Part shown: piece after piece, positions 798 through 24,567 of the stretch
Layout of the letters: each line of letters starts with the position of its first letter
Position numbering within the stretch: position 1 is the first letter of the stretch
Translations under genes and position numbers: made by a program
Notes under the pieces: model-generated
Databases searched by the model: none
Seen by the model: only the letters and a program-made list of their open reading frames with translations
Told to the model about the DNA's origin: nothing
NCBI GenBank assembly: GCA_965215605.1
Contig: OZ244070.1
Location: 1,792,001 to 1,856,000 of the forward strand
Reading direction: 5' to 3'
DNA from: an uncultured Candidatus Binatia bacterium
GTDB taxonomy: Bacteria; Desulfobacterota; Binatia; UBA9968; JAJDTQ01
Length of the DNA: 64,000 nt

Positions 798-860
798 CTC
801 GTGGCGCCCGGCGGCGCGGCGACGCTTGAGGATGCCTCGTGGCGAACGGACCCGCCGGGA

Positions 861-1565: not shown

Positions 1566-1632
1566 CGTCAGCCCGCCTGCGGCAGCCCTCCCATTAAAGC
1601 ACGATGATCCCGCAAGTGCAGGCACTCGCCCC

Positions 1633-1668
1633 TTTCGGTCATTCCCGCTTCCGCGGGAATGACCGAAA
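1633..1668. repeat. REP/dRS3-like perfect palindrome
   Basis: TTTCGGTCATTCCCGC-TTCC-GCGGGAATGACCGAAA, a 16-bp perfect inverted repeat containing ATTCCC-N8-GGGAAT. Confidence 0.8.
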
Positions 1669-1669
1669 A

Positions 1670-3345: not shown

Positions 3346-3364
3346 TGTGCGGGGCTACAGGACA

Positions 3365-4396
3365 CTAGATCCTGTACAGGCGCTTGGGATTCTCCGACAG
3401 GATCTTTCGCTTGGATTCGGCGGAGACGTCCTCCCGCGCGAAGAATTCCGGCAGGTCGCCGAAGAACTCCGCCCGCGCCCGCTCGTGCGGGTAGTCCGAC
3501 GGCCACACCAGCTTTTCGTCGCCCAGGAGCTGGATGAAGAAGGGCAGGGTCCGTTCCTCGATCTCGAAAGAGAAGTAGACGTTGGGGTCCATGAGGTACT
3601 CGCTGGGCTTGCGCTTGAGGTCGCTGGCGCCCTTGCGCTCGAATTGTTCGTCGAGCACGTCCATCAGGTAGGGCACCCAGCCGCAACCGGCCTCCAGGTA
3701 CGCCACCCGGAGGTTCGGGTAGCGGTCGAACACGCCCTGGGAGATCATGCTGGTGGCATGGCTCATGAGCGGGATCACGTGCTTGAGGGCGCGGACCTCC
3801 CGGTAGGTGCGTAGCGGGTCGGCGAAGTTGTGGGCGCCGACGAAGCCGCCGTGGACCGCGATCATGGTGTCGAGCTCGGCGGCGGCGGCGTAGATGGGGT
3901 CGAACTCCGGGTTGCCGTAGGCCATCAGCGGCGAGGAGATGGACGGCAGGATCGCCCCCACGAAGCCGAGCTCGCCGACGCAGCGCCGGAGCTCGCTCAC
4001 GCAGGCGCCGACGTCGTGCACCGGCAGCAGCGCCACCCCCAGCAGCCGGTCGCTCTGGCGCAGGAACTTGTCGTGGAGCCAGTCGTTGTACGCCCGCGCC
4101 AGGTCCACGGACCACTCCACCCGCCGCACCATGCCCACGGCCGCGGCGTTGCTCGGGTAAAGCACGGTGGCGCTGATGCCGGCCTCGTCCAGGAAGCTCA
4201 GCCACATGGCCGCGTCCGGGACGTCCTGCTTGTGCGGGTCGACGACGCCGAACGCCCAGGAATCCTGGGGAAACAGCGAGTAGTCGCGGTTGCCCGGGAT
4301 GCGCCGGAACCGCTCCGGGAGGTACTGGGCCATCTCCTTGTCCGGCTCCACCACGTGCCCGTCGCCGTCGATAATGGGGTAATCCACTTTGATCAT
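3365..4396 (-). CDS. Amidohydrolase_2 family protein
   Basis: IIDGDGHVVE, AYNDWL, AVHGG, LEAGCGW, WPSDYPH. Confidence 0.9.
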   Translation of the reverse strand: MIKVDYPIIDGDGHVVEPDKEMAQYLPERFRRIPGNRDYSLFPQDSWAFGVVDPHKQDVPDAAMWLSFLDEAGISATVLYPSNAAAVGMVRRVEWSVDLARAYNDWLHDKFLRQSDRLLGVALLPVHDVGACVSELRRCVGELGFVGAILPSISSPLMAYGNPEFDPIYAAAAELDTMIAVHGGFVGAHNFADPLRTYREVRALKHVIPLMSHATSMISQGVFDRYPNLRVAYLEAGCGWVPYLMDVLDEQFERKGASDLKRKPSEYLMDPNVYFSFEIEERTLPFFIQLLGDEKLVWPSDYPHERARAEFFGDLPEFFAREDVSAESKRKILSENPKRLYRI

Positions 4397-8500: not shown

Positions 8501-9120
8501 GTGGCGATGCCCTGGATGCTGTCCAGGAAGTCGGCGCCGAAGGCGCCGTAGGAGGCGCGCCGCCGCCGGCTGCTCTCCTCGGTGAACACCAGGAACAGCG
8601 GGGTCTCCAGCAGCGTCAGCAGGGCGAAGGCCACGAAGATAAGCCCGATGACGAGGTCGAAGGACGCCATCAGAAAGAAGATCAGCACCGGCGCCAGCCC
8701 CGCCACCACCATCTGCGGCAGGAACTGGCCGTAGAAGACCTGGAGCTGCTCCACCCCCTCGCCCAGCGACACCAGCACGTCGCCCGTCCGTTCCCGGTTG
8801 AAATGTCCGGGGCCCAGGTCCAGGGCGTGCCGGTAGAGCTTGTCGTGCAGCCCTTCCTTCACCCGGGCGGCGGTCTCATGGCTCACCATGTCCCGCAGAT
8901 ACTGGAACACCGCGCGCAGGGCGATGAAACCCGCGACGGCCGCCAGGTAGGGAATCAGCGACGAAAACGCGGCGCCGGTGAGGACCCCGGCGATGATGAG
9001 TCCGGAAAACGCCAGCCGCGAGATGCCGGCGGCCACGGCGCATAGTCCGAGCAGGGCGGCTGCGGCGATGCGACCGCGCACGCCGCGGGTATGGGTCAGC
9101 AGTCTTCGATCCAGGTACAT
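5518..9120 (-). CDS. Fused heterodimeric ABC transporter (TMD-NBD-TMD-NBD), CydDC/YbtPQ/IrtAB-like fold
   Basis: Two TM domains and two NBDs (GPSGAGKS...LSGGERQR; GPSGAGKT...LSGGQRQR); start MYLDRRLL. Confidence 0.88.
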   Translation of the reverse strand: MYLDRRLLTHTRGVRGRIAAAALLGLCAVAAGISRLAFSGLIIAGVLTGAAFSSLIPYLAAVAGFIALRAVFQYLRDMVSHETAARVKEGLHDKLYRHALDLGPGHFNRERTGDVLVSLGEGVEQLQVFYGQFLPQMVVAGLAPVLIFFLMASFDLVIGLIFVAFALLTLLETPLFLVFTEESSRRRRASYGAFGADFLDSIQGIATLKIFGRSRAQGEHLATRARDLYRATMGVLAVNMVSVGVATFGILGGTACALGWGAFKVSAGELEVRSLIVILIMGAEIFRPIRELMVLYHQGINAMAAAEGIFDLLETPVTVREPAAAEAAAGTSFEPAVRFEDVHFAYQEGSRPALRDVSLELRAGEKLGVVGPSGAGKSTLVSLMLRFADPQEGRVLLGGQDIRAIPLAVLRRHIAVVAQDMYLFYGTIADNLRMARPEATPEEIEAAARAANIHEFIAGLSDGYDTVVGERGVRLSGGERQRIAIARAILKDAPILVLDEALSSVDAQSEAVINEALRKLMEGRTTLIIAHRLSSVIHADRILVLERGRVVETGGHRELLEGGGTYARLMAAQAQAGDAEALAEREAPATAAAAEPEEAVEASVAPTADAAAPLSAFTVLRRLAGLVRPFRRKLAVSFSAGVLFQASVVGVGAASALLVGQLIRGEDIAFQLILLGSMVGLASMLAWADCWLPHDLAYQLLAEMRIDFYNTLDPLAPAYLTRRRSGDLVSIAGADVETVELFFAHTITPAFIAVVIPAGILVVLGAVAWPLMLALAPFLMLLAASPFLAQKRSDRLGGAVRRELGHMNAHLVDSIQGMREVVSFGHEKHQVADVLANSLRLARTQLAFHKDQALQASFNEAMTGLGALAVLTTGVWLVGQLEMERALLPLAIVLALLAFGPVTDVARTVKELMETLESGRRVFQVKDEPVPVRDGAGVPALAANGNDPPAIRFDHVNFGYDAGNGLALRDVCLDVEPGQTVALVGPSGAGKTTCAHMLLRFWDPAGGAVRLGDRDLRDFTLDHLREQVSLVSQDTYLFNTTMRDNIRLGRPDATQEEVEEAAGLAHIHRFISRLPAGYDTVVGERGVQLSGGQRQRIAIARALLKDAPVLILDEATSHLDAINEELIHQAVDRLVQGRTTLVIAHRLSTIRDADRIVVLDSGTIAEQGTHDDLLQSNGLYANLVMTQLVSANEPARMAEG

Positions 9121-9235
9121 GGTGTCACCGATCCCGGTTTCAGAAATTAGAAGGTCGTGGCCGCGAATACAAGGCCGGTCGTCCGGAACAGTGTCCATGG
9201 CCGGCCGAAAGCTCGTTTGTAGGCAAAAGAAAAAA

Positions 9236-9270
9236 TTTGGTCACGCTAACTTTAGGTATTGCACACCAGT
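9236..9270. promoter_or_regulatory. Tandem DtxR/IdeR-like operator candidates
   Basis: TTTGGTCACGCTAACTTTA (9236-9254) matches TTAGGTTAGGCTAACCTAA at 14/19; a second weaker site at 9252-9270; located in the divergent AT-rich gap. Confidence 0.55.
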
Positions 9271-9320
9271 TAGGTTTGAAGTATGGATGCCGGAAGTATC
9301 TCTTGAAGGGAGACCATGCA

Positions 9321-10355
9321 ATGTCGAGAAAAGCGTCAGGGAGCAGGCTCCGGGTGGCCATGATGGCGCTCCTGGGCCTGTCCATGGGGATGGCCGGCAA
9401 CGCCGTCGCCAACAGTGAAGTCAATATCTATTCGTACCGGCAGCCGTTCCTCATCAAGCCGATGCTGAACGCCTTTACCCGCCAGACGGGGATCAAGACC
9501 AACGTGGTGTTCGCGCCCAAGGGGATGATCACGCGCCTGAAGAAGGAGGGCAGGAACAGCCCGGCCGACATGATCCTGACGGTGGACATCGGGCGGATCA
9601 ACGACGCCGTGGAAGCGGACGTTCTGCAGCCGGTGAAGACGAAGAAGCTGACCGCGAACGTTCCGTCGTGGGACCGGGACCCGTCGGGTCTGTGGTACGC
9701 GCTCACGAGACGGGCGCGCATCGTCTACGCATCCCGGGAGCGGGTGAAGCCGGGCGATCTTTCCACCTACGAGGCGCTGACCGATCCCAAGTGGAAGGGC
9801 CGCATCTGCATCCGGTCATCGCAGAACGCCTACAACGTGGCGTTGCTTGCCTCCCTCGTGGCGCATCACGGCGAGGCGAAGGCGGAGGAGTGGGCCAAGG
9901 GGCTGAAGGCCAATCTGGCGCGCAAGCCTCAAGGCAACGACCGGGCCCAGATCAAGGCCATCTTTTCGGGCGAGTGCGACATCTCCCTGGGGAACTCCTA
10001 CTACATGGGCAAGATGCTCACCAACGAGAAGCAGATCGCCTGGGCGGAATCCGTGTTCCTTTTCTTCCCCAACCAGGATGGCCGCGGCGCGCACATGAAC
10101 ATCAGCGGCGCCGGCGTCACCAAGTACGCGCCGCGGAAGGACAACGCCGTCAAGCTGCTGGAGTTCCTGAGCGACGATCTGGCGCAGAAGATGTACGCCG
10201 AGCAGAACTTCGAGTACCCCGTGAAGCCGGGCGTGCCCTGGTCCGGTCTGGTGGAGTCGTGGGGCAGGTTCAAGGCTGACAAGATCGACATGATCAAGGT
10301 CGCCAAGAACCGTCCGACGGCCATCAGGATCTTCGACCGCGCAGGCATTCCCTAG
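9321..10355 (+). CDS. Fe(III) ABC transporter substrate-binding protein (FutA/AfuA/FbpA-like)
   Basis: VNIYSYRQ, EGRNSPAD, LTRRARII-like motif, RKPQGNDRAQ, NSYYMG (tandem Tyr Fe ligands). Confidence 0.9.
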   Translation: MSRKASGSRLRVAMMALLGLSMGMAGNAVANSEVNIYSYRQPFLIKPMLNAFTRQTGIKTNVVFAPKGMITRLKKEGRNSPADMILTVDIGRINDAVEADVLQPVKTKKLTANVPSWDRDPSGLWYALTRRARIVYASRERVKPGDLSTYEALTDPKWKGRICIRSSQNAYNVALLASLVAHHGEAKAEEWAKGLKANLARKPQGNDRAQIKAIFSGECDISLGNSYYMGKMLTNEKQIAWAESVFLFFPNQDGRGAHMNISGAGVTKYAPRKDNAVKLLEFLSDDLAQKMYAEQNFEYPVKPGVPWSGLVESWGRFKADKIDMIKVAKNRPTAIRIFDRAGIP

Positions 10356-10642: not shown

Positions 10643-11317
10643 GTGGCAGGGAAGCGCACCGAAGTCTCTTCCGCTACGGAAGACTACCTCAAGGCCATCT
10701 ACAGTCTGGCGGAGGAGAACGACCAGGTCATCGCGGCGCGGGTGGCGGAGGACATCGGCGTGACGCCGTCGACCATGTTCAGCGCCCTGAGGCGGCTCGA
10801 GAAGGAGGAGTTCGTGCGGGTGGAACGCCGCAAGAACATCTACCTGACATCGAAGGGCCGTGACGTGGCCGAGGCCATCCTGCGCCGGCACTATCTCACC
10901 GAACGTTTGCTGACGGACCTCCTGGGCCTGGACTGGGTCACCGCTCATCAGGAAGCCCACCACCTGGAGCACGCCATATCGCCGGTGGTGGAGGAGCGCT
11001 TGGCCGCGATCCTCCACAATCCGTCCACCTGCCCCCACGGCAATCCGATTCCGGTAAAGGGGGAACCGTCTCCGCGCCGCGAGTGGATTCCCCTGAATAC
11101 GGCGGAGGCGGGCACCGAGGTCATCTTCCGCTGCATCACCGAGACCGGCGAGCGCGATGCGGTGCTGCTTTCGTTCCTCTACGACCACCAGGTCCGTCCC
11201 GGCACCAGCATCGACATTCTCGACGTTTCGCCGTCCCTCGGCACCATCAGCCTCAAGGTGGGAGCGCACGAGGTCGTCCTCGGCCTGGAGGCCGCCAAGA
11301 AGATCCACGTGCAGTGA
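10643..11317 (+). CDS. DtxR/MntR/IdeR family metal-dependent repressor with C-terminal FeoA/SH3 domain
   Basis: EDYLKAIY, RRHYLTERLL, AHQEAHHLEH, CPHGNPIP. Confidence 0.93.
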   Translation: MAGKRTEVSSATEDYLKAIYSLAEENDQVIAARVAEDIGVTPSTMFSALRRLEKEEFVRVERRKNIYLTSKGRDVAEAILRRHYLTERLLTDLLGLDWVTAHQEAHHLEHAISPVVEERLAAILHNPSTCPHGNPIPVKGEPSPRREWIPLNTAEAGTEVIFRCITETGERDAVLLSFLYDHQVRPGTSIDILDVSPSLGTISLKVGAHEVVLGLEAAKKIHVQ

Positions 11318-11368: not shown

Positions 11369-11668
11369 TCAAGCAGGCTGGCGCAGACTCTTCGCGGGAC
11401 GGATGCGTGCGGTCAACCGTTTCTTCTCCTTGGCAAGAGCGCGAAAGTCGCACTCTATCTGAAGGCCGTGCCAGAATTCATCGGATTGACCGAAGAAGGC
11501 ACCGAAACGGATGGACATCGCCGGCGTGATCGAGCGCTGGCCGTGAACGATCTCGTTGATCGCCCGCGGCGAGACGCCGATGGCGCGGGCCATGGCGTTC
11601 TGCGAAATGCTCATCGGCTTGAGATAGTCTTCGAGAAGAATTTCCCCGGGAGTAATGGGATCTTGCAT
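11369..11668 (-). CDS. higA: HigA family antitoxin (orphan)
   Basis: [30 protein letters not shown]. Confidence 0.88.
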
Positions 11669-14257: not shown

Positions 14258-14881
14258 ATGAAGGCGGTTCTCTGGAGAACGCTCGGAATCGCGGTCCTGG
14301 CGCTGGCGTTCGTCATGGCGCCGGGGACGGAGGCGCCGGCCCACAAGTCCATCCTCAAGGTCGAGTTCGCGGAACGGCGCGAGTTGAACGTCCTCATCGA
14401 CAACTTCGCCCTCACCGACCAGAACGGCGAGCGCGTGGAGTTCCGGAAGCTCCGGGGCAAGCCGGTGGTGATCAACTTCATGTACACGTCGTGTCCGGAC
14501 GTGTGTCCGCTGCTGACGGCGAGCCTGAAGATCCTTCGGGACCACATGAAGCCCGCGGAGGTCAGGGACATCCGCTTCCTGTCCATCACCGCGGATCCGG
14601 AGGTGGACACGCCGGCGGTGCTCAAGGCCTACAGCAAGCGGCACGAGGCCGACGCCCCCAACTGGTCGTGGCTCACCGGCGAGGCCCGGGAACTGGCGCC
14701 GGTGTGGCAGGGTTTCGGCGTGGGCGTGAAGCGGCTGGCCCGGGGCCTCATCGACCACACCACGCTTACGGTGGTGGCGGATGCCAACGGGTTCATGCGT
14801 TTTGCCTACTTCGGCTCCGCTCCGGACCCGGACGTGCTGCTGAAGGACCTGCGGGCGCTCGCGAAGAAGGGGGCCACCTGA
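14258..14881 (+). CDS. SCO1/SenC family protein
   Basis: FMYTSCPDVCP (CxxxC), ITADPEVD, IDHT. Confidence 0.9.
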   Translation: MKAVLWRTLGIAVLALAFVMAPGTEAPAHKSILKVEFAERRELNVLIDNFALTDQNGERVEFRKLRGKPVVINFMYTSCPDVCPLLTASLKILRDHMKPAEVRDIRFLSITADPEVDTPAVLKAYSKRHEADAPNWSWLTGEARELAPVWQGFGVGVKRLARGLIDHTTLTVVADANGFMRFAYFGSAPDPDVLLKDLRALAKKGAT

Positions 14882-14994
14882 ACCTCCTTTCGCTTTCCCA
14901 CTATCTCCAATTCGCATCGTCCACACCCGCCGTCATTGACCCGCCTCGAACGGCGTGCGATCGTGGAGGCGATCCTGTCGTCGGAGCCTGAGCC

Positions 14995-17088
14995 GTGGAA
15001 TCGCTGTTGAGCAGCATCGCCTGGGAGACTCTGGTGGTCTTTTACGAGGCCTCGGTGTACCTCCTCATCGGCTTTTTCGTGGCCGGGCTCCTGCACGTGT
15101 ATCTGCCGGCGGACCTCATCGCGCGGCACCTGGGCCGGAACGATGCCCGCTCTGTGGGTCTTGCGGCGCTCTTCGGCGCGCCGATCCCGCTGTGCTCCTG
15201 CGGGGTCTTGCCAGCCGCGGCGTCCTTGAAGAGGCAGGGCGCCGGGCGGGCGCCGCTGGTCTCGTTTCTGATCTCCACTCCCGAGACCGGGGTGGACTCC
15301 GTGGCGCTCACCTACGGGCTCATGGGTCCGGTCATGGCCGTGGTCCGTCCCGTCGTGGCGGTGGTGACGGCTGTGATAGCCGGCATAGCCTCCATCGGCG
15401 TCAAGGAGGACGCAAGCCTGCCGCCGCCGGCCGACGTCACCTGCGACGATGACTGCGCGGCACCGGCGGAGGACTCGTGCGACGAAACCTGCGCGCCCGG
15501 CGGCGCGGCACCGGCAGGCCCGCGCCGTTTCCTCCATTCACTGGACTACGGCTTCACCGCGGTTCTGGACGACATCGCGCTGTCGCTCCTCGTCGGCATG
15601 CTGCTGACCGGCATCCTGGCGGGGCTTCTGCCCGACAATTTCTTTGACGAGGTGCTCGGCTGGGGTTCGGGGCTCATGCCCATGCTGGCCATGATCGTGG
15701 TGGGCCTGCCGCTCTACCTCTGCGCCAGCGCCTCCACCCCCATCGCCGCGGCGTTCATGGCCAAGGGCCTGTCGCCCGGCGCGGCGCTCGTGTTCCTGCT
15801 GGTGGGGCCGGCCACCAATCTTGCCACCATGACCGTGGTGGGGCAGCTCCTGGGCCGCCGTCATCTCGCCGTCTACCTCGGCGCCATCGTGCTGGTGAGC
15901 CTGGCCGCCGGACTGCTGGTGGACGCGACCCTGGCGGACGCGATCCACGTGCTCCCCTTCGGCGAGTTGGGGCAGGACGCCGACTGGATCTTCGCGCTCA
16001 AGGCGCTTTCAGCCGTGGCGCTGGTCCTGCTGCTGCTCCGGAGCTTCATGCGCAAGGGCCCTCGCGCGCTCTGGCGGGAGACCGCCCAACAGCTCCTGGA
16101 CACGGCCCGGGCGTTGAGGGCCTTCCGCCCCGCCAACCTGCTCCGGGGGCCGGTGCTCGCGGCCGTGCTGGCCGTTGCGCTGCTCGGCGCCATCCCCACG
16201 TTTACCCTGGTGGTGGGACCCGGCCAGAAGGGTGTCGTCCAGCGCTTCGGCCGGGTGGTGGCCGCGGATCTCCAGCCCGGACTGTACTTCCACCTGCCGC
16301 CGCCGTTGGGCAACGGCACCGCGGTGGACGTGGCGCTGATCCGTCAGGTTACGGTGGGCTTCCGGGGGAACGTCAACGGGGCCAGACCGGTGCTGGATGA
16401 CCAGGCGTTCTACCTGACCGCGGACGGCAACGTCATCGATATCCGGGCCGCGGTCCAGTACCGCGTCCGCGACCCGGCGGTGTACGCCCTGGGCGTCGAG
16501 GAGACCCCCGCGGTGGTGCTAGGGCTGGCCCGGCGGGAGCTCGTGAGCCTGCTGAGCCGCAAGCCCATCGACCGGATCTACACCGTGGACCGGAGGACCA
16601 CGGAAACGGAGCTGCGGGATCGCCTGGCGGCGCGCCTCGCGGCTTTGGGCGTGGGCAGCGAGATCCTGGACGTCCGGCTCCTGGATGTCCACGCGCCGGG
16701 GAGGGTCCACGACGCCTTCCGCGACGTGGCCAGCGCGCTGGAGGATCGCCAGCGCGACATCCACGTGGCCACGGGCGGGGCGACCCAGTCCACGGTGGCG
16801 GCCTCGGGCGAGGCGGAACGCATCACGCAAAGGGCCGCGGGCCGGGCCGTGCGCGAGGTCAGGGTGGCCGCGGGCCGGGCCGTCGCGTTCCGGCAGACCG
16901 CGGCGGCCCATGCCGCGAGCCCCGCGGTCACCGAAACCCGGCTCTACCTGGAGGCGCTCGAGCATTCCCTCGAGATGCCCCGAAAATTTGTCTACATGCC
17001 CGGCGCGGGCGGCGGTGACATCGATCTCTGGGTCGGCGCTCCGCCCATGGACTTCATGACTCCCGCGCCGTCGAGCCGACATCGATAG
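14995..17088 (+). CDS. DUF318/ArsP (SO_0444-like) metal permease fused to a C-terminal HflK-like SPFH domain
   Basis: PIPLCSCGVLP, FLISTPETGVDS, LYLCASASTP, FLLVGPATN; Cys/Asp-rich loop; then GVVQRFGR..PGLYFHLP, LTADGNVID, VHDAFRDV, TRLYLE. Confidence 0.85.
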   Translation: MESLLSSIAWETLVVFYEASVYLLIGFFVAGLLHVYLPADLIARHLGRNDARSVGLAALFGAPIPLCSCGVLPAAASLKRQGAGRAPLVSFLISTPETGVDSVALTYGLMGPVMAVVRPVVAVVTAVIAGIASIGVKEDASLPPPADVTCDDDCAAPAEDSCDETCAPGGAAPAGPRRFLHSLDYGFTAVLDDIALSLLVGMLLTGILAGLLPDNFFDEVLGWGSGLMPMLAMIVVGLPLYLCASASTPIAAAFMAKGLSPGAALVFLLVGPATNLATMTVVGQLLGRRHLAVYLGAIVLVSLAAGLLVDATLADAIHVLPFGELGQDADWIFALKALSAVALVLLLLRSFMRKGPRALWRETAQQLLDTARALRAFRPANLLRGPVLAAVLAVALLGAIPTFTLVVGPGQKGVVQRFGRVVAADLQPGLYFHLPPPLGNGTAVDVALIRQVTVGFRGNVNGARPVLDDQAFYLTADGNVIDIRAAVQYRVRDPAVYALGVEETPAVVLGLARRELVSLLSRKPIDRIYTVDRRTTETELRDRLAARLAALGVGSEILDVRLLDVHAPGRVHDAFRDVASALEDRQRDIHVATGGATQSTVAASGEAERITQRAAGRAVREVRVAAGRAVAFRQTAAAHAASPAVTETRLYLEALEHSLEMPRKFVYMPGAGGGDIDLWVGAPPMDFMTPAPSSRHR

Positions 17089-17098
17089 AGGGATTGCC

Positions 17099-18085
17099 AT
17101 GGCGAAACGTATCGGCGGGTTGCTCATCCTGGCGCTGGTCCTGGGCGCCGGCGCCACCTCGTTCGTGGTGGTAGACGAGAAGAGCCACGCGGTCATCACC
17201 CAGTTCGGGAAGCCGGTGTCGGTGCTGAGCCAGGCCGGTTTCTATCTCAAGCTGCCGGTGCCGTTCCAGCGCGCCAACGTGCTCGACAAGCGCATCCTGA
17301 TCACCAACACTCGCGAGACCGAGCTGCTGACGGCGGACAAGAAGAACGTGCTGGTCTCCACGTACATTTCCTGGAAGATCGCCGACCCGGTGCGGTACCT
17401 GGCCGCGCTGCGCAGGCGGGACTTCGCGGAGAGCCGCCTGGCCGCGCTGGTGCAGTCGGAGCTGGGCAGCGCGCTGGGCGACCGGCCCTTCGGGACGATC
17501 CTGGGGACCGCCGGCAACGGCGCCAGCCTGGCCGAGCTGGAGGGCTCGGTGGAGCGCGCCGTCTCCAGGGTGGCGCGGGAAGACCTCGGGATCGAGGTGG
17601 TCAGCCTGGGGGTGACCCGCCTCATCTTCCCGCCGCAGAACCTGGACAGCGTCTTCGCTCGCATGCGCGCCGAGCGCGCGCGCATCGCCCGGGGCCATCG
17701 CTCGGAGGGCCGGGCCGAAGCCCAGAAGATCGCCGCCCGCGCCGAACGGGAACGGGCGCGGATCATCGCCGACGCGGAGGCCAAGGCGGCCATGCTGCGG
17801 GGCCGGGGCGAAGCGGAAGCGGCGCGCATCTACGCGGAAGCCTACGAAGGGCACGCCGGGTTCTATCGCTTCCTGCGGACGCTGGAAGCCTACAAGAAGG
17901 TGCTGAACGAGAAGACCACGTTGGTCCTGCCCGCGGACTCCCCGTTTCTCGAGATCCTGACATCGAGGGTTCCCGGCGCCGTCCCGCCGGCGGATGGCGG
18001 GAAGAATGTGCCGGCGGTCTCCGGCCAGGACGTGGGTGCGGGGCCGGCGGCGCCCGCCCGGGACCGGGAGAAATCGGGTTCATGA
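17099..18085 (+). CDS. hflC: HflC-like SPFH protein
   Basis: AVITQFGKP, LTADKKNV, VFARMRAER, GEAEAARIYAEAY, FYRFLRTLEAY. Confidence 0.88.
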   Translation: MAKRIGGLLILALVLGAGATSFVVVDEKSHAVITQFGKPVSVLSQAGFYLKLPVPFQRANVLDKRILITNTRETELLTADKKNVLVSTYISWKIADPVRYLAALRRRDFAESRLAALVQSELGSALGDRPFGTILGTAGNGASLAELEGSVERAVSRVAREDLGIEVVSLGVTRLIFPPQNLDSVFARMRAERARIARGHRSEGRAEAQKIAARAERERARIIADAEAKAAMLRGRGEAEAARIYAEAYEGHAGFYRFLRTLEAYKKVLNEKTTLVLPADSPFLEILTSRVPGAVPPADGGKNVPAVSGQDVGAGPAAPARDREKSGS

Positions 18086-18990
18086 CCGGCCGCCTGCGAT
18101 ACCGGCTGCTGCTCTCCGCCGCCGTCCTTCTGGCGGGCTGGCTGACCCTGGGGATCTACAATGTCGAGTCGGACGAGAGCGCGGTGGCGTACGTTCTCGG
18201 CAGGGCCGTGGGGCGGGACGTCCTCCCGGGCATCCACTGGAACCCGCCGTGGCCGCTGGGCCGTGTGGTGGTGGCCCGGACGGCCACGAACTTCCTCATG
18301 CCGGTGGAACACACGGAGCCGCAAGGCCCCGCCGGGAGCGAGCCGGAGTCCCTCTGGCTCCTGGGCGACACCAACGTCATCGCCGGGAAGCTGGGAATCC
18401 AGTACAGCATCCGCAGCCTGACGCGCTTCGAGGTCTCGCACGAGGATCCGCGGGAACTGCTGCGTCGGGCAGGCGGCCAGGTCGTGACGCGGTTTCTCGC
18501 GGGCGAGAACGTGGACGCCGCGCTGACCGCCCGGCGCAACGACCTGCTGGACGCGGTGCAGCGGCAGGTTCAGGCAATCCTCGATGATCACGGCTCGGGC
18601 ATCGAGATCCTGTCGGTGAACGTGGAGACGCTGGCGCCGCCGCGGCAGGGGGGCGTGCGGCAGGCGTTCCAGGAGGTCCAGAGCGCCTTGGCGGACAAGG
18701 AGCGGGTGGTGGACGAGGCGCGCGCCGACCGCTCCCAGGTCTTCGCGGAAGCGGAGGGGGAGGCGGAACATCGTGTGACCCAGGCCGAGGCTGCGCGTCA
18801 CCGGCGGGTGGAGATCGCCAAGGGCGAAGGGGAACGCTTCCGCCGCCTGGCCTTCGAGCACCGCAAGACGCCCAGGCTCACCGAGGAACGGCTTTACCTC
18901 GAGACCATCGAGGAGGTCCTGCCGCGCATGGATACCTACGTCGTCCAGTCCGGACCGGACGGCAAGGTGAACCTGCGCGTGGTCCGGTGA
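18082..18990 (+). CDS. hflK: HflK-like SPFH protein
   Basis: PGIHWNPPWP, LGDTNVI, VRQAFQEVQSA, RLYLETIEEVL; ATGA overlap with hflC. Confidence 0.85.
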   Translation: MTGRLRYRLLLSAAVLLAGWLTLGIYNVESDESAVAYVLGRAVGRDVLPGIHWNPPWPLGRVVVARTATNFLMPVEHTEPQGPAGSEPESLWLLGDTNVIAGKLGIQYSIRSLTRFEVSHEDPRELLRRAGGQVVTRFLAGENVDAALTARRNDLLDAVQRQVQAILDDHGSGIEILSVNVETLAPPRQGGVRQAFQEVQSALADKERVVDEARADRSQVFAEAEGEAEHRVTQAEAARHRRVEIAKGEGERFRRLAFEHRKTPRLTEERLYLETIEEVLPRMDTYVVQSGPDGKVNLRVVR

Positions 18991-19013
18991 GGTGCGGAAT
19001 CCGATGCCCCTGC

Positions 19014-19058
19014 TTGACAAGCCATTCTAGTGAGAATAGGAACTCATTATCTATTCTC
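19014..19058 (+). promoter_or_regulatory. Sigma70 -35 plus Fur/Zur-family-like inverted repeat
   Basis: TTGACA at 19014; GAGAATAG-N11-CTATTCTC perfect IR (19032-19058) containing TCATTATC. Confidence 0.55.
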
Positions 19059-19078
19059 CTTTGAGGGGGTATTCACAC

Positions 19079-20236
19079 ATGAACAGACTGGTAGGTCTTT
19101 TACTTGCGATCGTTGTGAGCCTTTGGATCGGCGCACACCCGGCGCTCGGCAGCGATGCTCCAGTGGGTGTGGTCGCCAGCGTCCTGCCCATCGCCTTTGT
19201 CGCTCAGGAGGTGGGAGGCGATCGCGTCAAGGTGGATGTGCTGGTGCCGCCGGGCGCGAGCCCGCACACGTTCGAACCGGTACCGAGCGACATGGTCAAG
19301 CTGCAACGCGCCCGCCTGTTTCTTCGGGTCGGCGCGGGTCTGGACGCATGGTCCGACAAGCTTCGGGGCGCGGCTCCCGCCGGACTCGAGACGCTGACCC
19401 TGATCGCCGTCCCGGGAATGAAGCCGCTCGAGGGCGGTCATGATCACGATCACGGCCACGGGAAGAAGCCCGCGATGGAGCACGACGACCATGGCCATGA
19501 GGAGAAGCGTGCAGAGAAGCACGATGACCACGGCCACGAAGAGAAGCATGCAAAGAAGCAGGATGACCACGGCCACGAAGAGAAGCATGCAAAGAAGCAG
19601 GATGACCATGGCCACGAAGAGAAGCATGCAAAGAAGCAGGATGACCACGGCCATGACGAAAAGCACGCGAAGAAGGAAGACGACCACGGCCACGCCGAGG
19701 AGCCCGGAGAGGGAATGAATCCCCACTTTTGGCTGGACCCGATACGGATCAGGGATGCGGTGGTTCCCGTGATCGTCGAACATCTCGTTGAAGCGGACCC
19801 GGCGGGCAAGGACTACTATGAGAAGCGCGGCAAGGACTTTCACCAGCGATTGACGGCGCTGGATATTCAGATCCGGCGGGAGCTTGCCAAGGCGAAGGGC
19901 CGGAAGTTCGTTGCGTTTCACAGCGCCTGGCCCTATTTCTCCGAGCGGTACAACGTCGAGGAAGTCGCGGTGGTCCAGGAGTTCGCGGGCGAGGAACCCA
20001 CCCCCAAGGAGGTGGCCGCGCTGGTGCAAGGTGCGCGTGCGGCAGAGATACGGAGCATCCTGGTGGAGCCGCAGCTCAGCCCGCGCGTGGCACAGACCAT
20101 CGCGAACGAGTTCGGCGGCGGGACGGTGATGGTGGACCCGGTAGGAGACCCCGGCGATCCGGCGCGTTCCACCTACGAAAAACTGATGCTGTTCAACGCC
20201 CGCGCCTTCGCGCAGGCGTTGGGGGGACATAATTGA
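19079..20236 (+). CDS. znuA: Zn ABC transporter substrate-binding protein with long His-rich loop
   Basis: SPHTFEP, His-rich loop, NPHFWLDP, FHSAWPYF. Confidence 0.88.
   Translation: MNRLVGLLLAIVVSLWIGAHPALGSDAPVGVVASVLPIAFVAQEVGGDRVKVDVLVPPGASPHTFEPVPSDMVKLQRARLFLRVGAGLDAWSDKLRGAAPAGLETLTLIAVPGMKPLEGGHDHDHGHGKKPAMEHDDHGHEEKRAEKHDDHGHEEKHAKKQDDHGHEEKHAKKQDDHGHEEKHAKKQDDHGHDEKHAKKEDDHGHAEEPGEGMNPHFWLDPIRIRDAVVPVIVEHLVEADPAGKDYYEKRGKDFHQRLTALDIQIRRELAKAKGRKFVAFHSAWPYFSERYNVEEVAVVQEFAGEEPTPKEVAALVQGARAAEIRSILVEPQLSPRVAQTIANEFGGGTVMVDPVGDPGDPARSTYEKLMLFNARAFAQALGGHN
19448..19693 (+). repeat. Coding 39-bp tandem repeat (~6 units of DHGHEEKHAKKQD)
   Basis: Units start at 19448, 19487, 19526, 19565, 19604, 19643 and 19682. 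Confidence 0.92.
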
Positions 20237-21021
20237 CGGAACGCAACGACGGAGTCGTGGTAGGGCTGAACGGCGTGTCGGTGGAGTTGGGGGGGCACAG
20301 CGTCCTGCACGACATCAACTTCGACGTGCACGAGGGCGGGTTCGTGGGCATCGTGGGCCCCAACGGGGCGGGCAAGACCACGCTGCTGCGCACGATCCTC
20401 GGCCTCGTGCCGGTCGTGAGCGGCAGGGTGGAGGTGTTTGGCCTCCCGCCGGGCCGGAACGGCTCTCACGCCATCGGCTACGTACCGCAGCGCCAGAGCG
20501 TTGCCGACAACTTCCCGGCCACCGTCGGCGACGTGGTGATGATGGGGCGGCTGCGGCACCTCGGGCTCATGAGGTTCCCCGGGCGGAAGGACTGGCAGCG
20601 GGTGGATGACAGCCTGTCCCTCGTGGGCATGCTGGACCGCAAGGACCGTGCGGTGGGGCGGTTGTCCGGCGGCGAGCAGCGCCGCGCCATGCTGGCCCAG
20701 GCGCTGTGCGCCAGCACGCGCCTGCTGGTGCTCGACGAGCCCACGGTGGGCCTCGACCTTCCCGCCGAGCATGAGTTCTACGCACTGCTGCGGAAGCTCA
20801 TACGCGATCTGACGCTGACCATCGTGGCGGTGTCGCACGATCTCGTGGCCTTGGCCGGCGAGACCGACGAGCTGATCTGTATCAACCACCGCATGCACAT
20901 CCACGGCAACGCCGAGGATGTGATCCACAGCCACGCCATCCGCGAGGCCTACTGTTGCGAGTTCGACTTCCTGGCCGGCGAGATTGCCCATCACGAGGGC
21001 CACGACCACGTCGAGTCGTGA
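20233..21021 (+). CDS. znuC: Zn ABC transporter ATPase
   Basis: GPNGAGKTT, YVPQ, LSGGEQRR; C-terminal YCC...HHEGHDH. Confidence 0.88.
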   Translation: MTERNDGVVVGLNGVSVELGGHSVLHDINFDVHEGGFVGIVGPNGAGKTTLLRTILGLVPVVSGRVEVFGLPPGRNGSHAIGYVPQRQSVADNFPATVGDVVMMGRLRHLGLMRFPGRKDWQRVDDSLSLVGMLDRKDRAVGRLSGGEQRRAMLAQALCASTRLLVLDEPTVGLDLPAEHEFYALLRKLIRDLTLTIVAVSHDLVALAGETDELICINHRMHIHGNAEDVIHSHAIREAYCCEFDFLAGEIAHHEGHDHVES

Positions 21022-21066: not shown

Positions 21067-21867
21067 ATGTTCGATTTTGCCTTCATGCAGCGCGCCCTGG
21101 CGGCGGCGGTCCTGGTGGGCCTCCTGTGCGGGATACTGGGCTTTTTCGTGGTCTTGCGGCGCCTGGCGTTCATCGGCGTGGGCATTTCCCATTCGGCCAT
21201 CGGGGGCGTTGCCATCGGCATCCTGGCGGGCTGGAACCCGCTCCTCACGGGCGCCTTCTTTGCCGTCGCCGTGGCCCTGGGCATCGCGCTGGTCAGTCAG
21301 AGCGACCGCATCAGCGAGGACACCGTCATCGGCGTGTTCTTCTCGGGGTCCATGGCGCTGGGGATCGTGCTCTTCAGCATGAAGAGCGGCTACCAGCAGG
21401 ATCTCTTCAGCTACCTCTTCGGCAACGTGCTGGCCATCTCCACCGGGGAGCTCGTTGCCCTTGCCTGCGCGAGCGCGGCGATCATGGCGGGCATCGTGCT
21501 GACCTTCAAGGAGCATCTGCTGATCGCCTTCGACGAGGAAGTGGCCTCGGCCTACGGCCACAAGGTCGTCGCGCTCAACGTGCTGTTGCTGGTGTTGCTG
21601 GCCTTGACCGTGGTCATCGGCGTGCGGCTGGTGGGCCTGCTGCTGATCCAGGCCCTGCTGGTGGTGCCGGCGGCCGTCGCGGCGCTGTGCGTGATGAATT
21701 TTCGCTGGCAGGTGCTGCTGTCGGCGCTGGTCGGGTCCGTCTCCGGCGTCGCGGGTCTGGTGCTGGCGTATCAACTGGACATCGCCGCCGGCGGAGCCAT
21801 CGTGCTGGTGGCCGTCGCTCTCTTCTTCATGACACTGTTGGCCCGCACGTTGAGCAGGGGTGACTAG
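21067..21867 (+). CDS. znuB: Zn ABC transporter permease
   Basis: FVVLRRLAFIGVGISH, LFSYLFGNVL, FDEEVA. Confidence 0.88.
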   Translation: MFDFAFMQRALAAAVLVGLLCGILGFFVVLRRLAFIGVGISHSAIGGVAIGILAGWNPLLTGAFFAVAVALGIALVSQSDRISEDTVIGVFFSGSMALGIVLFSMKSGYQQDLFSYLFGNVLAISTGELVALACASAAIMAGIVLTFKEHLLIAFDEEVASAYGHKVVALNVLLLVLLALTVVIGVRLVGLLLIQALLVVPAAVAALCVMNFRWQVLLSALVGSVSGVAGLVLAYQLDIAAGGAIVLVAVALFFMTLLARTLSRGD

Positions 21868-22029
21868 TGTCCTGTCTCACAAATGGCGTTATGAATCTGC
21901 GGGTCCTTTTTTGCCGTCGGCTGCGTTGCTCTTCCTCGCGTGGTGCCCGCCACTGCTCGTCATCGCGCCTTGCCGACAACAAAAATGCCCTCGCATCTTC
22001 ATAACGCTGTTTGTGAGACAGGACACTAG
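21864..22029. mobile_element. 166-bp MITE (CTAG-bounded, IS630/IS5-like ends)
   Basis: 32-bp TIRs with 2 mismatches (CTAGTGTCCTGTCTCACAAATGGCGTTATGAA ... TTCATAACGCTGTTTGTGAGACAGGACACTAG); partly palindromic interior; no transposase. Confidence 0.85.
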
Positions 22030-22829
22030 CGAGTCGACGGGCGCCCGCGCCGGCGGCCCATCCGCGTCACCACGAACAGCGCCAGCGCCGCCGTCACGAT
22101 GGAGGGGCCCGAGGGCGTATCCAGCGTTGCCGAGGCCAACAGTCCCCCGACGATGGCCAAAATACCCGCCGCGGCTGACGCGAGGGCCATCTTCTCGGGG
22201 CTCGACGCGAAGCGCCGGACCGTGGCCGGCGGTATCACCAGTAGCGCGACGATCAGCAGTATCCCCACGATCTTCACCGCCACCGATATGAGCGCCGCCA
22301 CCAGGATGCCGAACAGCAGCCGCGCGCGCTCCGGCCGCAGTCCCGCCACCGTGGCGAGATCGAGGCTGACGGTGGCCGCCAGCAGCGGACGCCAGATCCA
22401 CCACAACACCGCCAGGACGGCGGCGCCGCCCGCCCAGATGACCACGAGGTCCGTGCGCGTCACGGCCAGGATGTCGCCGAAGAGCAGCGCGTGCAGGTCG
22501 AACCGCATGCTGGGGAAGAACGCCAGGACCACGAGCCCCAGCGAGAGGCCGCCATGGGCGAGCAAGCCGAGGATGGTGTCGGTGGGCAGGGTGTCGCTCC
22601 GTTCCAGGAAGAACATGATAAACACGACGGCGGAAGCGGTGGCGAAGATGCCGATGGCCAGGTCGATGTCGGCCACGATGGCCACCGCGACGCCCAGCAG
22701 GGCCGAGTGGGCGATGGTCTCGCCGAAGTAGGCCAGCCGCCGCCACACCACGAAACAGCCCGTCGGCCCGGTCACCAGCGCCAGCCCGACACCGGCCAGC
22801 AGCGCGCGCGTGAAGAAGTCGTCCAGCAT
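22026..22829 (-). CDS. znuB: Zn ABC transporter permease (second, proteobacterial type)
   Basis: GCFVVWRRLAYFGETIAHSALLG, DTILGLLAH, LFGDILAV. Confidence 0.9.
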   Translation of the reverse strand: MLDDFFTRALLAGVGLALVTGPTGCFVVWRRLAYFGETIAHSALLGVAVAIVADIDLAIGIFATASAVVFIMFFLERSDTLPTDTILGLLAHGGLSLGLVVLAFFPSMRFDLHALLFGDILAVTRTDLVVIWAGGAAVLAVLWWIWRPLLAATVSLDLATVAGLRPERARLLFGILVAALISVAVKIVGILLIVALLVIPPATVRRFASSPEKMALASAAAGILAIVGGLLASATLDTPSGPSIVTAALALFVVTRMGRRRGRPSTR

Positions 22830-22831
22830 GC

Positions 22832-23533
22832 TCAGTCCGACGGGCCGGGCCCGGGACTCGTTCCCTGGGCCGGGAAGCCCTGGATGCCGAAAGGCGGGGT
22901 ATCGTGTTCGTGGGGTACCAGGACCACCAGGTCGTCTCCTGTGTCCATGGCCTTCTGGAGGTCATGAGAAATGATCAGAACGCCGCAGCCCAGGTCCCGC
23001 CGAATCCCTTCGATCAGGTCATGCACGACATCCGTTCCGGTGGCGTCGACGCCCTGCTCCGGTTCGTCGAGGACCAGCAGGTCGGGCCGGTGAATCAGCG
23101 CCCGAGCCAGCATCAGCCGCTGGAATTCGCCCCCCGACAGGGTCGTGACCGGCGGGTCGCCCAGCCGTTCGAGGCCCACCGCCGCCAAGGCGGAGTCGAT
23201 TCTGTCCGCGGGGAAGCGGCCGGTCAGTGCCATCAGGCGGCGCACGGTCATGGGCAGGGTCGCGGTCACCTGGAGTCTTTGCGGGACGTAGCCCACTTCC
23301 AGCGAGGGCGCCCGCGTCACCTGCCCCTCGGCGACGTCGATCAACCCCAGAACCGCCTTGACGCAGGTGGACTTGCCGGCGCCGTTGGCGCCGATGAGGT
23401 AGACCATCTCGCCGCGCGTCACCTTGAGGTCCACGTGACGGATGATCCAGCGCTCGCCCCGCCGCACGCCGATGTTGCGGGCGTCGACGAGCAGGCCGGA
23501 AGCGGCCGACTGTGTGTCCGGTCTATCCATCAT
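22832..23533 (-). CDS. znuC: Zn ABC transporter ATPase (second)
   Basis: GANGAGKST, GYVPQ, LSGGEFQR, SHDL; short C-terminus. Confidence 0.85.
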   Translation of the reverse strand: MMDRPDTQSAASGLLVDARNIGVRRGERWIIRHVDLKVTRGEMVYLIGANGAGKSTCVKAVLGLIDVAEGQVTRAPSLEVGYVPQRLQVTATLPMTVRRLMALTGRFPADRIDSALAAVGLERLGDPPVTTLSGGEFQRLMLARALIHRPDLLVLDEPEQGVDATGTDVVHDLIEGIRRDLGCGVLIISHDLQKAMDTGDDLVVLVPHEHDTPPFGIQGFPAQGTSPGPGPSD

Positions 23534-23628
23534 CGGTGTGTGACAGCGCGGGGCGACGGATCGCGCTTGATCATTTGGAGCACTCGGGGTAGTTTTCGCA
23601 AAAATTCCAAGCGGACTCAAGGAGCGAC

Positions 23629-24567
23629 ATGATGAAACGAATTCTTGCGACGTTCCTGTTTGCCGTCATGATCGCCGCGACCACGACGGTCGGCGCCGCG
23701 GGTCGGGTCGTGGCGACGTTCAAGCCGGTGCATTCGCTGGTGAGCGCGGTCATGGCCGGGGTGGGCGAGCCGTACCTGATCATGAAGGACGCTGCCACGC
23801 CGCATAGCTATCGCATGCGGCCGTCCGACGCCGGGGTGATCGGGAAGGCTCGGGTCATTTTCATGATCGGCGACCTGGTCGAAAGCTCCCTGGCCGGGCC
23901 TATCCACAAGCTCGGCGGCAAGGCCCGGGTGGTGAAGCTGGCCGAGGTGCCGGGGCTGGTGCGCCAGCCGCTCCGCAAGGGGGGTGCGTTCGAGGACGAA
24001 GGGCACGATCATGGACCTGGGCACGCCCACGGCCATGAGGACGAGGCTTTTGACCTGCACGTGTGGCTCGACCCGGTGAATGCCGGCTTGATGGCGCTCG
24101 CCATAGCCGGCACCCTGTCCGAGATCGATTCGGCCAATGCCGCGAGGTACGAAGCCAACGCCAACGCCCTGGTGGCCCGGCTGGACGAGTTGACCGCGCA
24201 AATCGCCGCGGAGCTGGCGCCGGCGCGCGACAAACCCTTCATCGTGTTTCACGATGCGTATCGCTACTTCGAGGACCGCTTCGGGCTGAAAGCCGTGGGC
24301 TCGGCGGTGGTCAGCACCGGCCGGTCGCCCGGCGTCCGCCGTGTCAGGGAACTGCGCAAAAAGGTGCGTGAGCTCGGGGTGGTATGCGTGTTCGCCGAAC
24401 CTCGGTACGACCCGCGTTTCGTCAGGCTCATCACCGAAGGCACGAAGGCGCGGGGCGGCACGATGGATCCCGCGGGCATCGCCGTCAAAGCGGGCCCCGA
24501 GATGTACTTCAGCCTTCTCCGCAACATGGCCGCGTCCTTCAAGGCGTGCCTGGCGCCAGCGGGTTAG
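23629..24567 (+). CDS. znuA: Zn ABC transporter substrate-binding protein (second)
   Basis: KPVHSLVSAVM, TPHSYRMRPSDA, HDHGPGHAHGHE, DLHVWLDP, VFHDAYRYFE; divergent from znuCB. Confidence 0.9.
   Translation: MMKRILATFLFAVMIAATTTVGAAGRVVATFKPVHSLVSAVMAGVGEPYLIMKDAATPHSYRMRPSDAGVIGKARVIFMIGDLVESSLAGPIHKLGGKARVVKLAEVPGLVRQPLRKGGAFEDEGHDHGPGHAHGHEDEAFDLHVWLDPVNAGLMALAIAGTLSEIDSANAARYEANANALVARLDELTAQIAAELAPARDKPFIVFHDAYRYFEDRFGLKAVGSAVVSTGRSPGVRRVRELRKKVRELGVVCVFAEPRYDPRFVRLITEGTKARGGTMDPAGIAVKAGPEMYFSLLRNMAASFKACLAPAG

Follow-up and report, generated by a model that had tools for sequence, protein, structure and literature searches.

A putative SPFH assembly with a metal exporter built into one subunit: an SO_0444-type permease fused to an HflK-like domain in a Binatia genome

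The stretch of DNA analysed here (the window, 64 kb, C1:1792001-1856000 in the genome of an uncultured Candidatus Binatia bacterium) carries a gene in which a permease of the SO_0444 Cu/Zn efflux family is joined to an HflK-like SPFH domain, followed at once by an HflC-like gene and a free HflK-like gene. We consider it rather probable that this trio encodes a dedicated SPFH assembly of the HflK/HflC type, with a metal exporter as client, linked covalently to one of the subunits. An earlier sequence-only reading of this DNA had described the 697-residue permease-SPFH frame with its motifs, the 10-bp gap and the ATGA overlap that follow it, and the order of genes through znuABC, and all of these were found in place.

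The fusion gene and its conservation

The SO_0444/HflK-like fusion gene lies at 14995-17088 on the forward strand, starts with GTG and encodes a protein of 697 amino acids (aa). The protein is matched in Pfam by ArsP_1 over residues 17-309 (E 2.1e-41) and by Band_7 over residues 406-593 (E 5.4e-19). It passes the NCBIfam model NF033936, 'SO_0444 family Cu/Zn efflux transporter' (354.9 bits, cut-off 300), with its residues 14-349 aligned to positions 3-349 of the 351 in the model, and over residues 406-665 it scores 143.3 bits with the NCBIfam hflK model TIGR01933, which is below the cut-off of 159.4. All three proteins of the module pass PF01145 (69.4, 71.5 and 34.1 bits, gathering cut-off 23.6). 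The current database names, 'SO_0444 family Cu/Zn efflux transporter' or 'HflK', each conceal one half of the fusion, and the annotation is corrected here.

The SO_0444-family (ArsP_1) permease occupies residues 1-352 (14995-16050, forward strand), as judged from Pfam, NF033936, the alignment of homologues and the AlphaFold2 model. Its translation contains the motifs LCSCG (residues 66-70), STPETGVD and LYLCASAS (from residue 240), together with a variable Cys/Asp-rich loop, TCDDDC..SCDETC, at residues ~135-174. C67, S68, C69 and C243 are invariant in an alignment of 104 fused homologues, as is R353 at the start of the basic linker helix that follows. This linker, residues 353-384 (16051-16146, forward strand), is delimited by its content of Lys and Arg and by the AlphaFold2 helix at 330-376, with nine Lys and Arg residues among the 40 that separate the last transmembrane (TM) helix of the permease from the HflK-type TM anchor. 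The anchor itself is at residues 385-403 (16147-16203, forward strand), where a hydropathy peak (389-407) and an AlphaFold2 helix (385-403) are found. The remainder, residues 404-697 and the stop codon (16204-17088, forward strand), is an HflK-like SPFH domain with a coiled coil and a C-terminal segment, identified from Band_7, TIGR01933, Foldseek and the SPFH trees, which place it in the K-type clade; D677-L678-W679 are conserved in its C-terminal segment.

A search covering 5.8 billion proteins gave 1960 matches with E <= 0.001 among 8000 scored candidates, and both PF03773 and PF01145 are present in all of the best 120 homologues listed (47-100% identity, 637-780 aa). The Protein Atlas returned only generic Band_7 clusters. 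Gene loci were scanned using one genome per species, with 465 stretches confirmed and the 80 that scored highest kept. In 51 of these 80, a share that describes the best-scoring loci rather than all SO_0444 homologues, the permease has an SPFH-coding stretch after it, and a single open frame runs across both parts in 50 of the 51. The exception is L065 (9249-11137), where the fused gene and the HflC-like gene appear as split tblastn matches in different frames, which suggests frameshifts from decay or from sequencing errors. The other 29 loci have unfused permeases of ~350-420 aa, with no SPFH gene in the fetched flanks. A separate permease gene accompanied by a separate hflK-like gene was found in none of the 80.

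The junction between the two domains (~nt 15934-16210) is also bridged by contigs from public sequencing runs of three studies. Two of them (X1 record 3 and X4 record 10) cover 15825-16503 with 0 differences from the window, and two others, X5 record 16 (14979-16576) and X6 record 23 (15322-16965), show 86 and 90 differences respectively over ~1.6 kb; X1-X3 are possibly the source sample of the genome. The open frames, the two-domain homologues and the bridging contigs together exclude a sequencing or assembly artefact, and leave a negligible chance that gene-calling read-through has joined two genes. The fusion that had been read from the window is thus a conserved one.

The labels of the carriers are taxonomically wide. 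They include Binatia (80% identity to the window), Myxococcota/'Deltaproteobacteria', Eiseniibacteriota, Spirochaetota, Acidobacteriota, Gemmatimonadota, Rokuibacteriota, Planctomycetota, Tectimicrobiota and Alphaproteobacteria. Within a sample of 151 genomes from the phylum of the window, a full-length fusion of the SO_0444 type is found only in G000 and G143. The latter belongs to the same class as the genome of the window, and its module (locus L099) stands between a gene for an AcrB/CzcA-type RND pump (489-3668) and one for an MFS transporter (8123-9328). It is worth adding that several of the unfused SO_0444 homologues of this sample (in G148, G059, G006, G062 and G068) contain one in-frame TGA, which would fit the selenocysteine (USC) forms of the family mentioned in 10.1101/2022.07.06.499078.

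Partner genes, predicted structure and parallel fusions

The stop codon of the fusion gene, TAG, is followed by a gap of 10 nt (agggattgcc) and then by the ATG of the HflC-like gene, 17099-18085 on the forward strand, which encodes 328 aa and passes TIGR01932 (182.8 bits, cut-off 134.4). Its stop shares an ATGA overlap with the start of the free HflK-like gene, 18082-18990 on the forward strand, which encodes 302 aa and scores 149.3 bits with TIGR01933, under the cut-off of 159.4. This order is general among the fused loci. The HflC-like gene comes next after the fusion in 49 of the 51, the other two (L047 and L049) stopping at a contig edge, and a third, K-type gene is present in all 47 loci that extend far enough to contain it, L017 and L018 being truncated. 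A variant with four SPFH genes is seen in L034, L035, L047 and L065, from Rokuibacteriota and an alphaproteobacterium, where an extra HflC-like gene followed by an FmdA_AmdA (formamidase/acetamidase) gene lies ~1.2 kb upstream of the fusion.

The relation of these genes to the canonical hflKC was analysed using two quick maximum-likelihood trees, of 84 SPFH domains and, with four further modules described below, of 99 rows, both with support only from the Shimodaira-Hasegawa-like approximate likelihood ratio test (SH-aLRT). In the smaller tree the C-type clade has a support of 100, within which the C subunits of the modules form a group of their own (95) with canonical HflC apart. The K-type clade (99) contains canonical HflK, the free module K subunits and the fused domains; in the two trees free module K joins canonical HflK with supports of 94 and 92, yet is distinct from it. 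The comparison with canonical hflKC that the sequence-only reading had called for thus gives the module C subunits a clade of their own and congruent subtrees for the fused (FUS), C and K domains. The window groups with L013, L014, L016, L019 and L053 with a support of 100 in each of the three subtrees, and L045, L055 and L058 group together with 98-99 in each. Some placements cross phyla, a Spirochaetales locus lying beside a Myxococcota locus in all three. Given these identical sub-clades, the clear conclusion from the sequences is that the three genes travel together, being co-inherited across at least ten phyla.

The genome of the window has nine Band_7 matches, namely the trio, two hflK/hflC pairs and two stomatin-type genes. 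The pairs are at C1:2586436-2588195 and C2:27237-28999, and score 297.2 and 287.1 bits for hflK and ~245-248 bits for hflC. Canonical HflK of this genome is 40% identical to HflK of E. coli, against 25-27% for the two K-type domains of the window. Together with the separate canonical pairs, this sets the trio apart from the housekeeping hflKC as a divergent third set; that it might be the only canonical hflKC of the genome is ruled out. The module C subunits form a separate clade in these quick trees and do not group with canonical HflC as orthologues would. The architecture of HflK is present, with a single TM helix, an SPFH domain, a long coiled-coil helix and an adjacent hflC-like gene, the N-terminus being presumably on the inside. 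The two canonical pairs are nearly identical (end branches of 0.04-0.09), the one on C2 being on a contig of 50 kb, and the second pair could be a duplication, strain heterogeneity or contamination in an assembly that is 97% complete and 5.7% contaminated. The stomatin-type genes adjoin NfeD matches at C1:1125873 and C1:3441658, and all three NfeD matches of the genome are outside the window. NfeD is not among the 25 commonest families in the 95 nearest-neighbour open reading frames (ORFs) of the fused loci.

The structure of the fusion protein was predicted by AlphaFold2 using the alignment of 104 sequences. The model has a mean pLDDT (local confidence) of 83.3 and a pTM (global confidence) of 0.60, and is low in confidence only in the loop 147-168 and the last 25 residues. 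The permease is predicted as helical up to residue 312, with pLDDT 80-94 outside that loop, followed by a TM helix running into the long helix 330-376, the TM helix 385-403, strands in 404-491 and a 73-residue helix, 569-641. The top Foldseek matches in the PDB are HflK/HflC chains of 7vhq (7vhq_E, E 1.6e-12), 9cz2, 9paw and 7wi3 (E values up to 3e-9), with stomatin, prohibitin, erlin, QmcA and flotillin lower down; there are no permease structures among the matches listed. From the basic linker and the positive-inside rule, the linker would lie in the cytoplasm and the SPFH parts in the periplasm, as in HflK. By the same reasoning the Cys/Asp-rich loop would face the cytoplasm, a position suited to the capture of substrate by an exporter.

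The HflC-like protein was also modelled together with residues 370-697 of the fusion. The interface score ipSAE was 0.65, 0.65 and 0.62, the best control giving 0.00; the mark applied to this score is reached by 58 of 80 solved complexes and by 2 of 110 mismatched pairs. At least 89% of the contacts are common to the runs, and the partner has a pLDDT of at least 77. The modelled interface runs along the coiled-coil helices (residues 185-285 of the C subunit and 567-669 of the fusion) and the sides of the SPFH domains. Given that HflK/HflC has already been solved, this pass expresses likeness to HflK/HflC and not binding of these particular copies.

The same scaffold is fused to exporters of two other families. 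In the sample of the phylum, some matches to the fusion start only at query residue ~325, in open frames of ~580 aa. There are four such loci. In the three that were scanned (L096-L098) a protein of 568-589 aa consists of a Cation_efflux (CDF) membrane domain and then Band_7, and is followed by HflC-like (293-295 aa) and HflK-like (333-352 aa) genes; the fourth (L095) has the identical gene order by tblastn. PF01545 and PF01145 are both present in all of the best 120 homologues of one such protein (43-100% identity, 538-638 aa). The HxxxD motif can be read by eye in TM2 and TM5, the linker has 11 Lys and Arg in 54 residues, and no cytoplasmic C-terminal domain was detected in the CDF part. On the 3' side of the module in L097 (5363-6960) there are genes for DUF1007 and for a NicO-family permease of the nickel/cobalt type.

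The third exporter family emerged from a search for longer proteins with the free HflK-like sequence, which gave four matches. Two of them are P1B-type ATPases of 995 aa with a C-terminal HflK-like domain (TIGR01525, 547 and 591 bits, cut-off 346.25); the others, P0241 and P0242, are probable merged HflC/HflK(/ZnuA) gene calls and are not counted as fusions. When searched with P0243, 50 of the best 150 representatives at 50% identity (987-1152 aa) were colinear across both parts, starting no later than residue 65 and reaching at least residue 899. In the metagenome loci L100 and L101, the ATPase-SPFH gene is followed by HflC-like and then HflK-like genes, so that these partners follow the fusion in 4/4 loci of the CDF type and 2/2 loci of the P1B-ATPase type examined. 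The basic linker before the HflK-type TM helix is a common feature, with 14 Lys and Arg in 60 residues in the P1B-ATPase type. Both CDF and P1B pumps move metal out of the cytoplasm and have their C-terminal end in the cytoplasm, which fits an HflK anchor with its N-terminus inside.

With four CDF modules added in the 99-row tree, CDF-module C is sister to SO_0444-module C (85), with canonical HflC outside. The fused and the free K subunits of the CDF modules group together weakly (43), and the SO_0444-fused domains form one clade (79). The CDF-fused SPFH domains are therefore apart from the SO_0444-fused ones, and fusions of exporters to what appears from the trees to be a specialised C/K lineage probably arose more than once.

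Neighbouring genes and the zinc link

The genes that follow the module in the window, all on the forward strand, encode a zinc-uptake ABC transporter: znuA1 (19061-20236, Pfam ZnuA, E 2.1e-71, with a His-rich loop), znuC1 (20233-21021) and znuB1 (21067-21867). The loop of ZnuA1 is encoded in part by a 39-nt tandem repeat (19451-19694, 6.3 copies, 86% matches), giving His/acid-rich units of the type HGHEEKHAKKQDD. A second znu set follows immediately at 22026-24567, with znuB2 and znuC2 on the reverse strand, divergent from znuA2 on the forward strand, and the island thus carries two zinc-type ABC importers. Between the convergent znuB1 and znuB2 there is a 58-nt inverted repeat (21864-21921/21972-22029, 83% complementary, with a spacer of 50 nt), possibly a bidirectional terminator or the remnant of a mobile element.

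The sequence-only reading had pointed to znuABC as the neighbour of the module, and this can be refined to zinc importers generally. In 28 of the 51 fused SO_0444-type loci there are genes for ZIP, Znu or TonB-dependent receptors at a distance of no more than 5 kb. In 14 loci a ZIP gene (PF02535) directly adjoins the module and has its orientation, being just upstream in 12 (where its end overlaps the permease match or is at most ~56 nt from it) and 15-24 nt after the HflK-like gene in two. ZnuB/ZnuC-type genes are within 5 kb in 10 loci, directly downstream in seven and on the other strand in three alphaproteobacterial ones, and the order of module and then znu seen in the window recurs in L013-L016, L019, L045 and L053. 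TonB-dependent receptors are found in five loci, four of which have no Znu. In L015, L016, L019 and L053 the start of znuA abuts or overlaps the stop of the HflK-like gene, and the module and the importer are therefore one operon there. Among the 95 nearest-neighbour ORFs of the fused loci Zip is the commonest family (11), and neither ArsR nor MerR is among the 25 families listed; these counts are lower bounds, as some shadow ORFs on the opposite strand were picked. The flanks of the 29 unfused loci gave 116 ORFs, and here the families seen most often are the ArsR-type HTH_5 (13), HTH_20 (7) and MerR (2), with Zip and ZnuA not among the 25 families listed. In the few loci of the CDF and ATPase types examined, there was no consistent importer neighbour. 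The importer neighbours of the SO_0444 type argue for a place in zinc homeostasis, and not for a stand-alone response of detoxification.

In the window and in L013, the space between the HflK-like gene and znuA contains an inserted TTGACA hexamer and GAGAAT/ATTCTC palindrome. In the window these are at 19012-19058 on the forward strand, directly before znuA1, as TTGACA and then the inverted repeat GAGAATAG-N11-CTATTCTC, read in the sequence; in L013, TTGACA and the palindrome GAGAATATATTCTC are at the same place. The pattern GAGAATAG-N11-CTATTCTC is unique in the window, and at least one match was seen in 4 of 100 shuffles. The GAGAAT..ATTCTC site has one look-alike elsewhere in the genome, which is intragenic. 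From its sequence, this site is a possible internal promoter with an operator. No inverted repeat was found before the fusion gene; the short-seed repeat search is one that missed the 8-nt palindrome arms which the pattern search detects. No Zur-type operator was found before the module, a k-mer analysis of the regions upstream of ZIP genes gave no common motif (several ZIP genes directly follow a sugar-transferase gene), and the counts from a promoter and terminator scan equalled the level of shuffled sequence.

On the 5' side of the fusion, 113 nt upstream, is a gene of the SCO1/SenC copper-chaperone type (14258-14881, forward strand, Pfam SCO1-SenC, E 2.4e-26). It is where the sequence-only reading had seen it. 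Its membership of the system is not supported: such a gene precedes the fusion only in the window and, among the 51 fused loci, in L013, the closest relative of the window, and it is local context outside the conserved module. Also kept in L013 is the synteny with a metal regulator of the DtxR/IdeR family with a FeoA-like C-terminal domain, 3.7 kb upstream (10643-11317). A small ORF at 11369-11668 on the reverse strand has, by eye, the look of a HigA-type helix-turn-helix antitoxin.

The favoured reading, its rivals and known systems

The reading that we favour, a dedicated HflK/HflC-type assembly with its exporter client built in, can be outlined as follows. With the topology given above, fused and free K-type subunits would alternate with C-type subunits in a ring- or dome-shaped assembly on the periplasmic side of the membrane, and the exporters would be tethered at the fenced membrane patch by a cytoplasmic linker of 30-60 residues. 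The free HflK-like subunit could then space or dilute the bulky exporters in each ring. The permease would export cytoplasmic Zn(II) and/or Cu(I), and the cage may set its position, activity and lifetime, so that the module and the neighbouring importers would balance uptake and efflux in zinc homeostasis. As background to this function, PMC3219624 reports that SO_0444 of Shewanella oneidensis is needed for growth under stress by ZnSO4 or CuCl2, with complementation, and a conserved Cys-Ser-Cys motif is highlighted for the family in 10.1101/2022.07.06.499078. The client on this scaffold is always a metal exporter, which argues that the permease of the window exports too. The link to metal handling made in the sequence-only reading is strengthened by the fusions to CDF and P1B-ATPase. 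Its proposal of a cage of three SPFH subunits with a tethered permease is borne out as regards dedicated, co-inherited partners and the predicted packing of the fused and HflC-like subunits, while the ring itself is something we infer. The contrast that it drew with a protease regulator is not borne out, as the residues in contact with FtsH in E. coli HflK give a mixed picture here.

Several points tell against the favoured reading. Neither the fused domain nor the free HflK-like protein reaches the HflK cut-off of TIGR01933. The prediction of the complex may pass by memory of the solved HflK/HflC structures. The metal specificity of the window permease is read from its family and its neighbours, and an exporter co-transcribed with zinc importers, and with neither ArsR nor MerR among the nearest-neighbour families listed, is unlike what simple detoxification would predict. 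Our statements on ring stoichiometry, on whether the ring encloses the exporter and on what the free K subunit does are likewise inferences, and the reading as a whole is computational.

One alternative is that the trio is still tied to FtsH: its cage would house the single FtsH of the genome, and the fusion would place the exporter beside the protease, so that its abundance is set by degradation or protection according to metal status. We regard this as unlikely, and yet it has arguments in its favour. The SPFH parts are of the HflK/HflC type by hidden Markov model, tree and fold, the genome has one ftsH and three sets of the hflKC type, and HflK is the subunit by which FtsH is attached to the cage of E. 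coli (PMC13220708). There, replacement by Ala of HflK R141, E142 and R185 lowers the pull-down of FtsH. The counterpart of R141 is Arg in 3/3 canonical HflK, 22/26 fused domains and 7/26 free K, and that of R185 in 1/3, 14/26 and 19/26 respectively; the fused domains in the first column and the free K subunits in the second speak for FtsH, and to that extent against the favoured reading. On the other hand, R141 is kept in 0/8 K-type domains of the CDF modules. Arg191 of HflK is also said to touch FtsH, in PMC12048511. In the K-12 sequence used position 191 is Ala, and Arg193 nearby is probably the residue meant, the numbering being uncertain. The column of R193 has Arg in 3/3 canonical, 14/26 fused and 0/26 free K, with Val in the fused domain of the window. 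Since E142 and R185 vary even in the canonical HflK of this genome, the test by contact residues is weak either way. Two further points run counter to an FtsH link. The module C subunits are a lineage apart from canonical HflC, and there is no ftsH in the tallied flanks of the modules or in the window. The absence from the window of both ftsH and hflX, as the sequence-only reading had said, agrees with their positions: the only Peptidase_M41 (FtsH) match of the genome is at C1:2395823, ~590 kb away, and the HflX match is at C1:2339765-2340832, both beyond C1:1792001-1856000.

The neighbourhoods described above raise another alternative, that the module functions in zinc shortage, the fused permease importing metal or feeding periplasmic acceptors together with the adjacent importers. 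The abutting ZIP genes, the ZnuBC-type genes, the TonB receptors and the znuA starts on the stop of the HflK-like gene are all on its side, as is the association of the unfused permeases with ArsR and MerR rather than Zip or ZnuA among the families listed. We think it quite improbable, given that the scaffold is also fused to CDF and P1B-ATPase exporters, that the window protein passes the SO_0444 efflux model and keeps its motifs, that no Zur-type operator was found before the module, and that a promoter-like site precedes znuA itself in the window and L013. It is very improbable that there is no cage at all, with the SPFH domain a mere appendage of the permease serving folding or localisation and the downstream genes an HflK/HflC pair of their own, adjacent by chance. 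For this it can be said that assembly is not directly evidenced and that both K-type proteins are under the hflK cut-off. It is opposed by the invariant order and tight spacing of the three genes, by their congruent subtrees, by the extensive interface predicted along the coiled-coil helices and by the repetition of the arrangement with two other exporter families.

A bolder extension of the favoured reading, which we hold to be improbable, is that the trio and its CDF and P1B counterparts are an FtsH-independent periplasmic 'metal hand-off chamber'. In such a chamber the tethered exporters would empty their Zn(II) or Cu(I) under the SPFH dome, from where the metal would pass to acceptors or be released in a controlled way and would be kept from mixing with the periplasm at large. 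If true, bacteria would have a compartment for metal trafficking, walled by protein, that has so far gone unrecognised, and no earlier natural case would be known of an SPFH cage whose client is hard-wired in the gene.

The effect of SPFH cages (HflK/C, prohibitin, stomatin, flotillin and erlin) on the membrane proteins that they enclose is mostly debated, partly because their clients are many and bind transiently. A client joined to its cage by a peptide bond, at least three times and with unrelated metal exporters, offers a defined, stoichiometric cage-client pair for structural work and a simple readout, in which metal tolerance or accumulation is compared between the presence and the absence of the SPFH part and the partners. 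It also hints that metal efflux benefits from lateral confinement. In keeping with the sequence-only reading, which knew of no characterised system with this fusion, no description of a transporter-SPFH fusion was found in the full-text literature, subscription journals and supplements being outside reach, and the 2009 survey of prokaryotic SPFH proteins (PMC2636767) makes no mention of permease, transporter, fused or DUF318.

Among known systems, the permease of the window is like SO_0444 in passing the family model and keeping the CSC motif. SO_0444 is stand-alone and beside a ZntR-type regulator, according to PMC3219624, whereas the permease of the window is fused, has no such regulator next to it and is beside zinc importers; it is the 29 unfused loci that resemble SO_0444, with ArsR/MerR neighbours and no SPFH gene. 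The CDF- and P1B-ATPase-HflK-like modules (L095-L098, L100 and L101) share with the SO_0444 type the order of exporter-K SPFH, HflC-like and free HflK-like, and the basic linker of 40-60 residues, and differ in that the transporter families are unrelated and that there are no evident zinc-importer neighbours in the few loci examined. Stomatin cups, as in human stomatin with aquaporin 1 (PDB 9zd2; PMC13724742), are likewise SPFH oligomers that isolate a circular patch of membrane with transporters, but are homo-oligomers on the cytoplasmic face, with diverse non-covalent clients, and are not of the HflK/C type. In stomatin-NfeD operons (QmcA-YbbJ, PDB 8z5g) an SPFH scaffold is likewise encoded with a dedicated membrane partner; the module has no NfeD gene, and its subunits are of the HflK/C type. 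The closest parallels are to HflK/HflC-FtsH of E. coli (7vhq, 7wi3, 9cz2 and 9paw), where K- and C-type SPFH genes are also side by side, with a single N-terminal TM helix, an SPFH domain, a long coiled-coil helix and a C-terminal cap, and where the K/C interface is like the one predicted here. The trio has three subunits, not two, and at the N-terminus of one K-type subunit a whole metal exporter stands where HflK has a cytoplasmic tail; its client is covalent, and its lineages are separate from canonical hflKC, which the genome also keeps.

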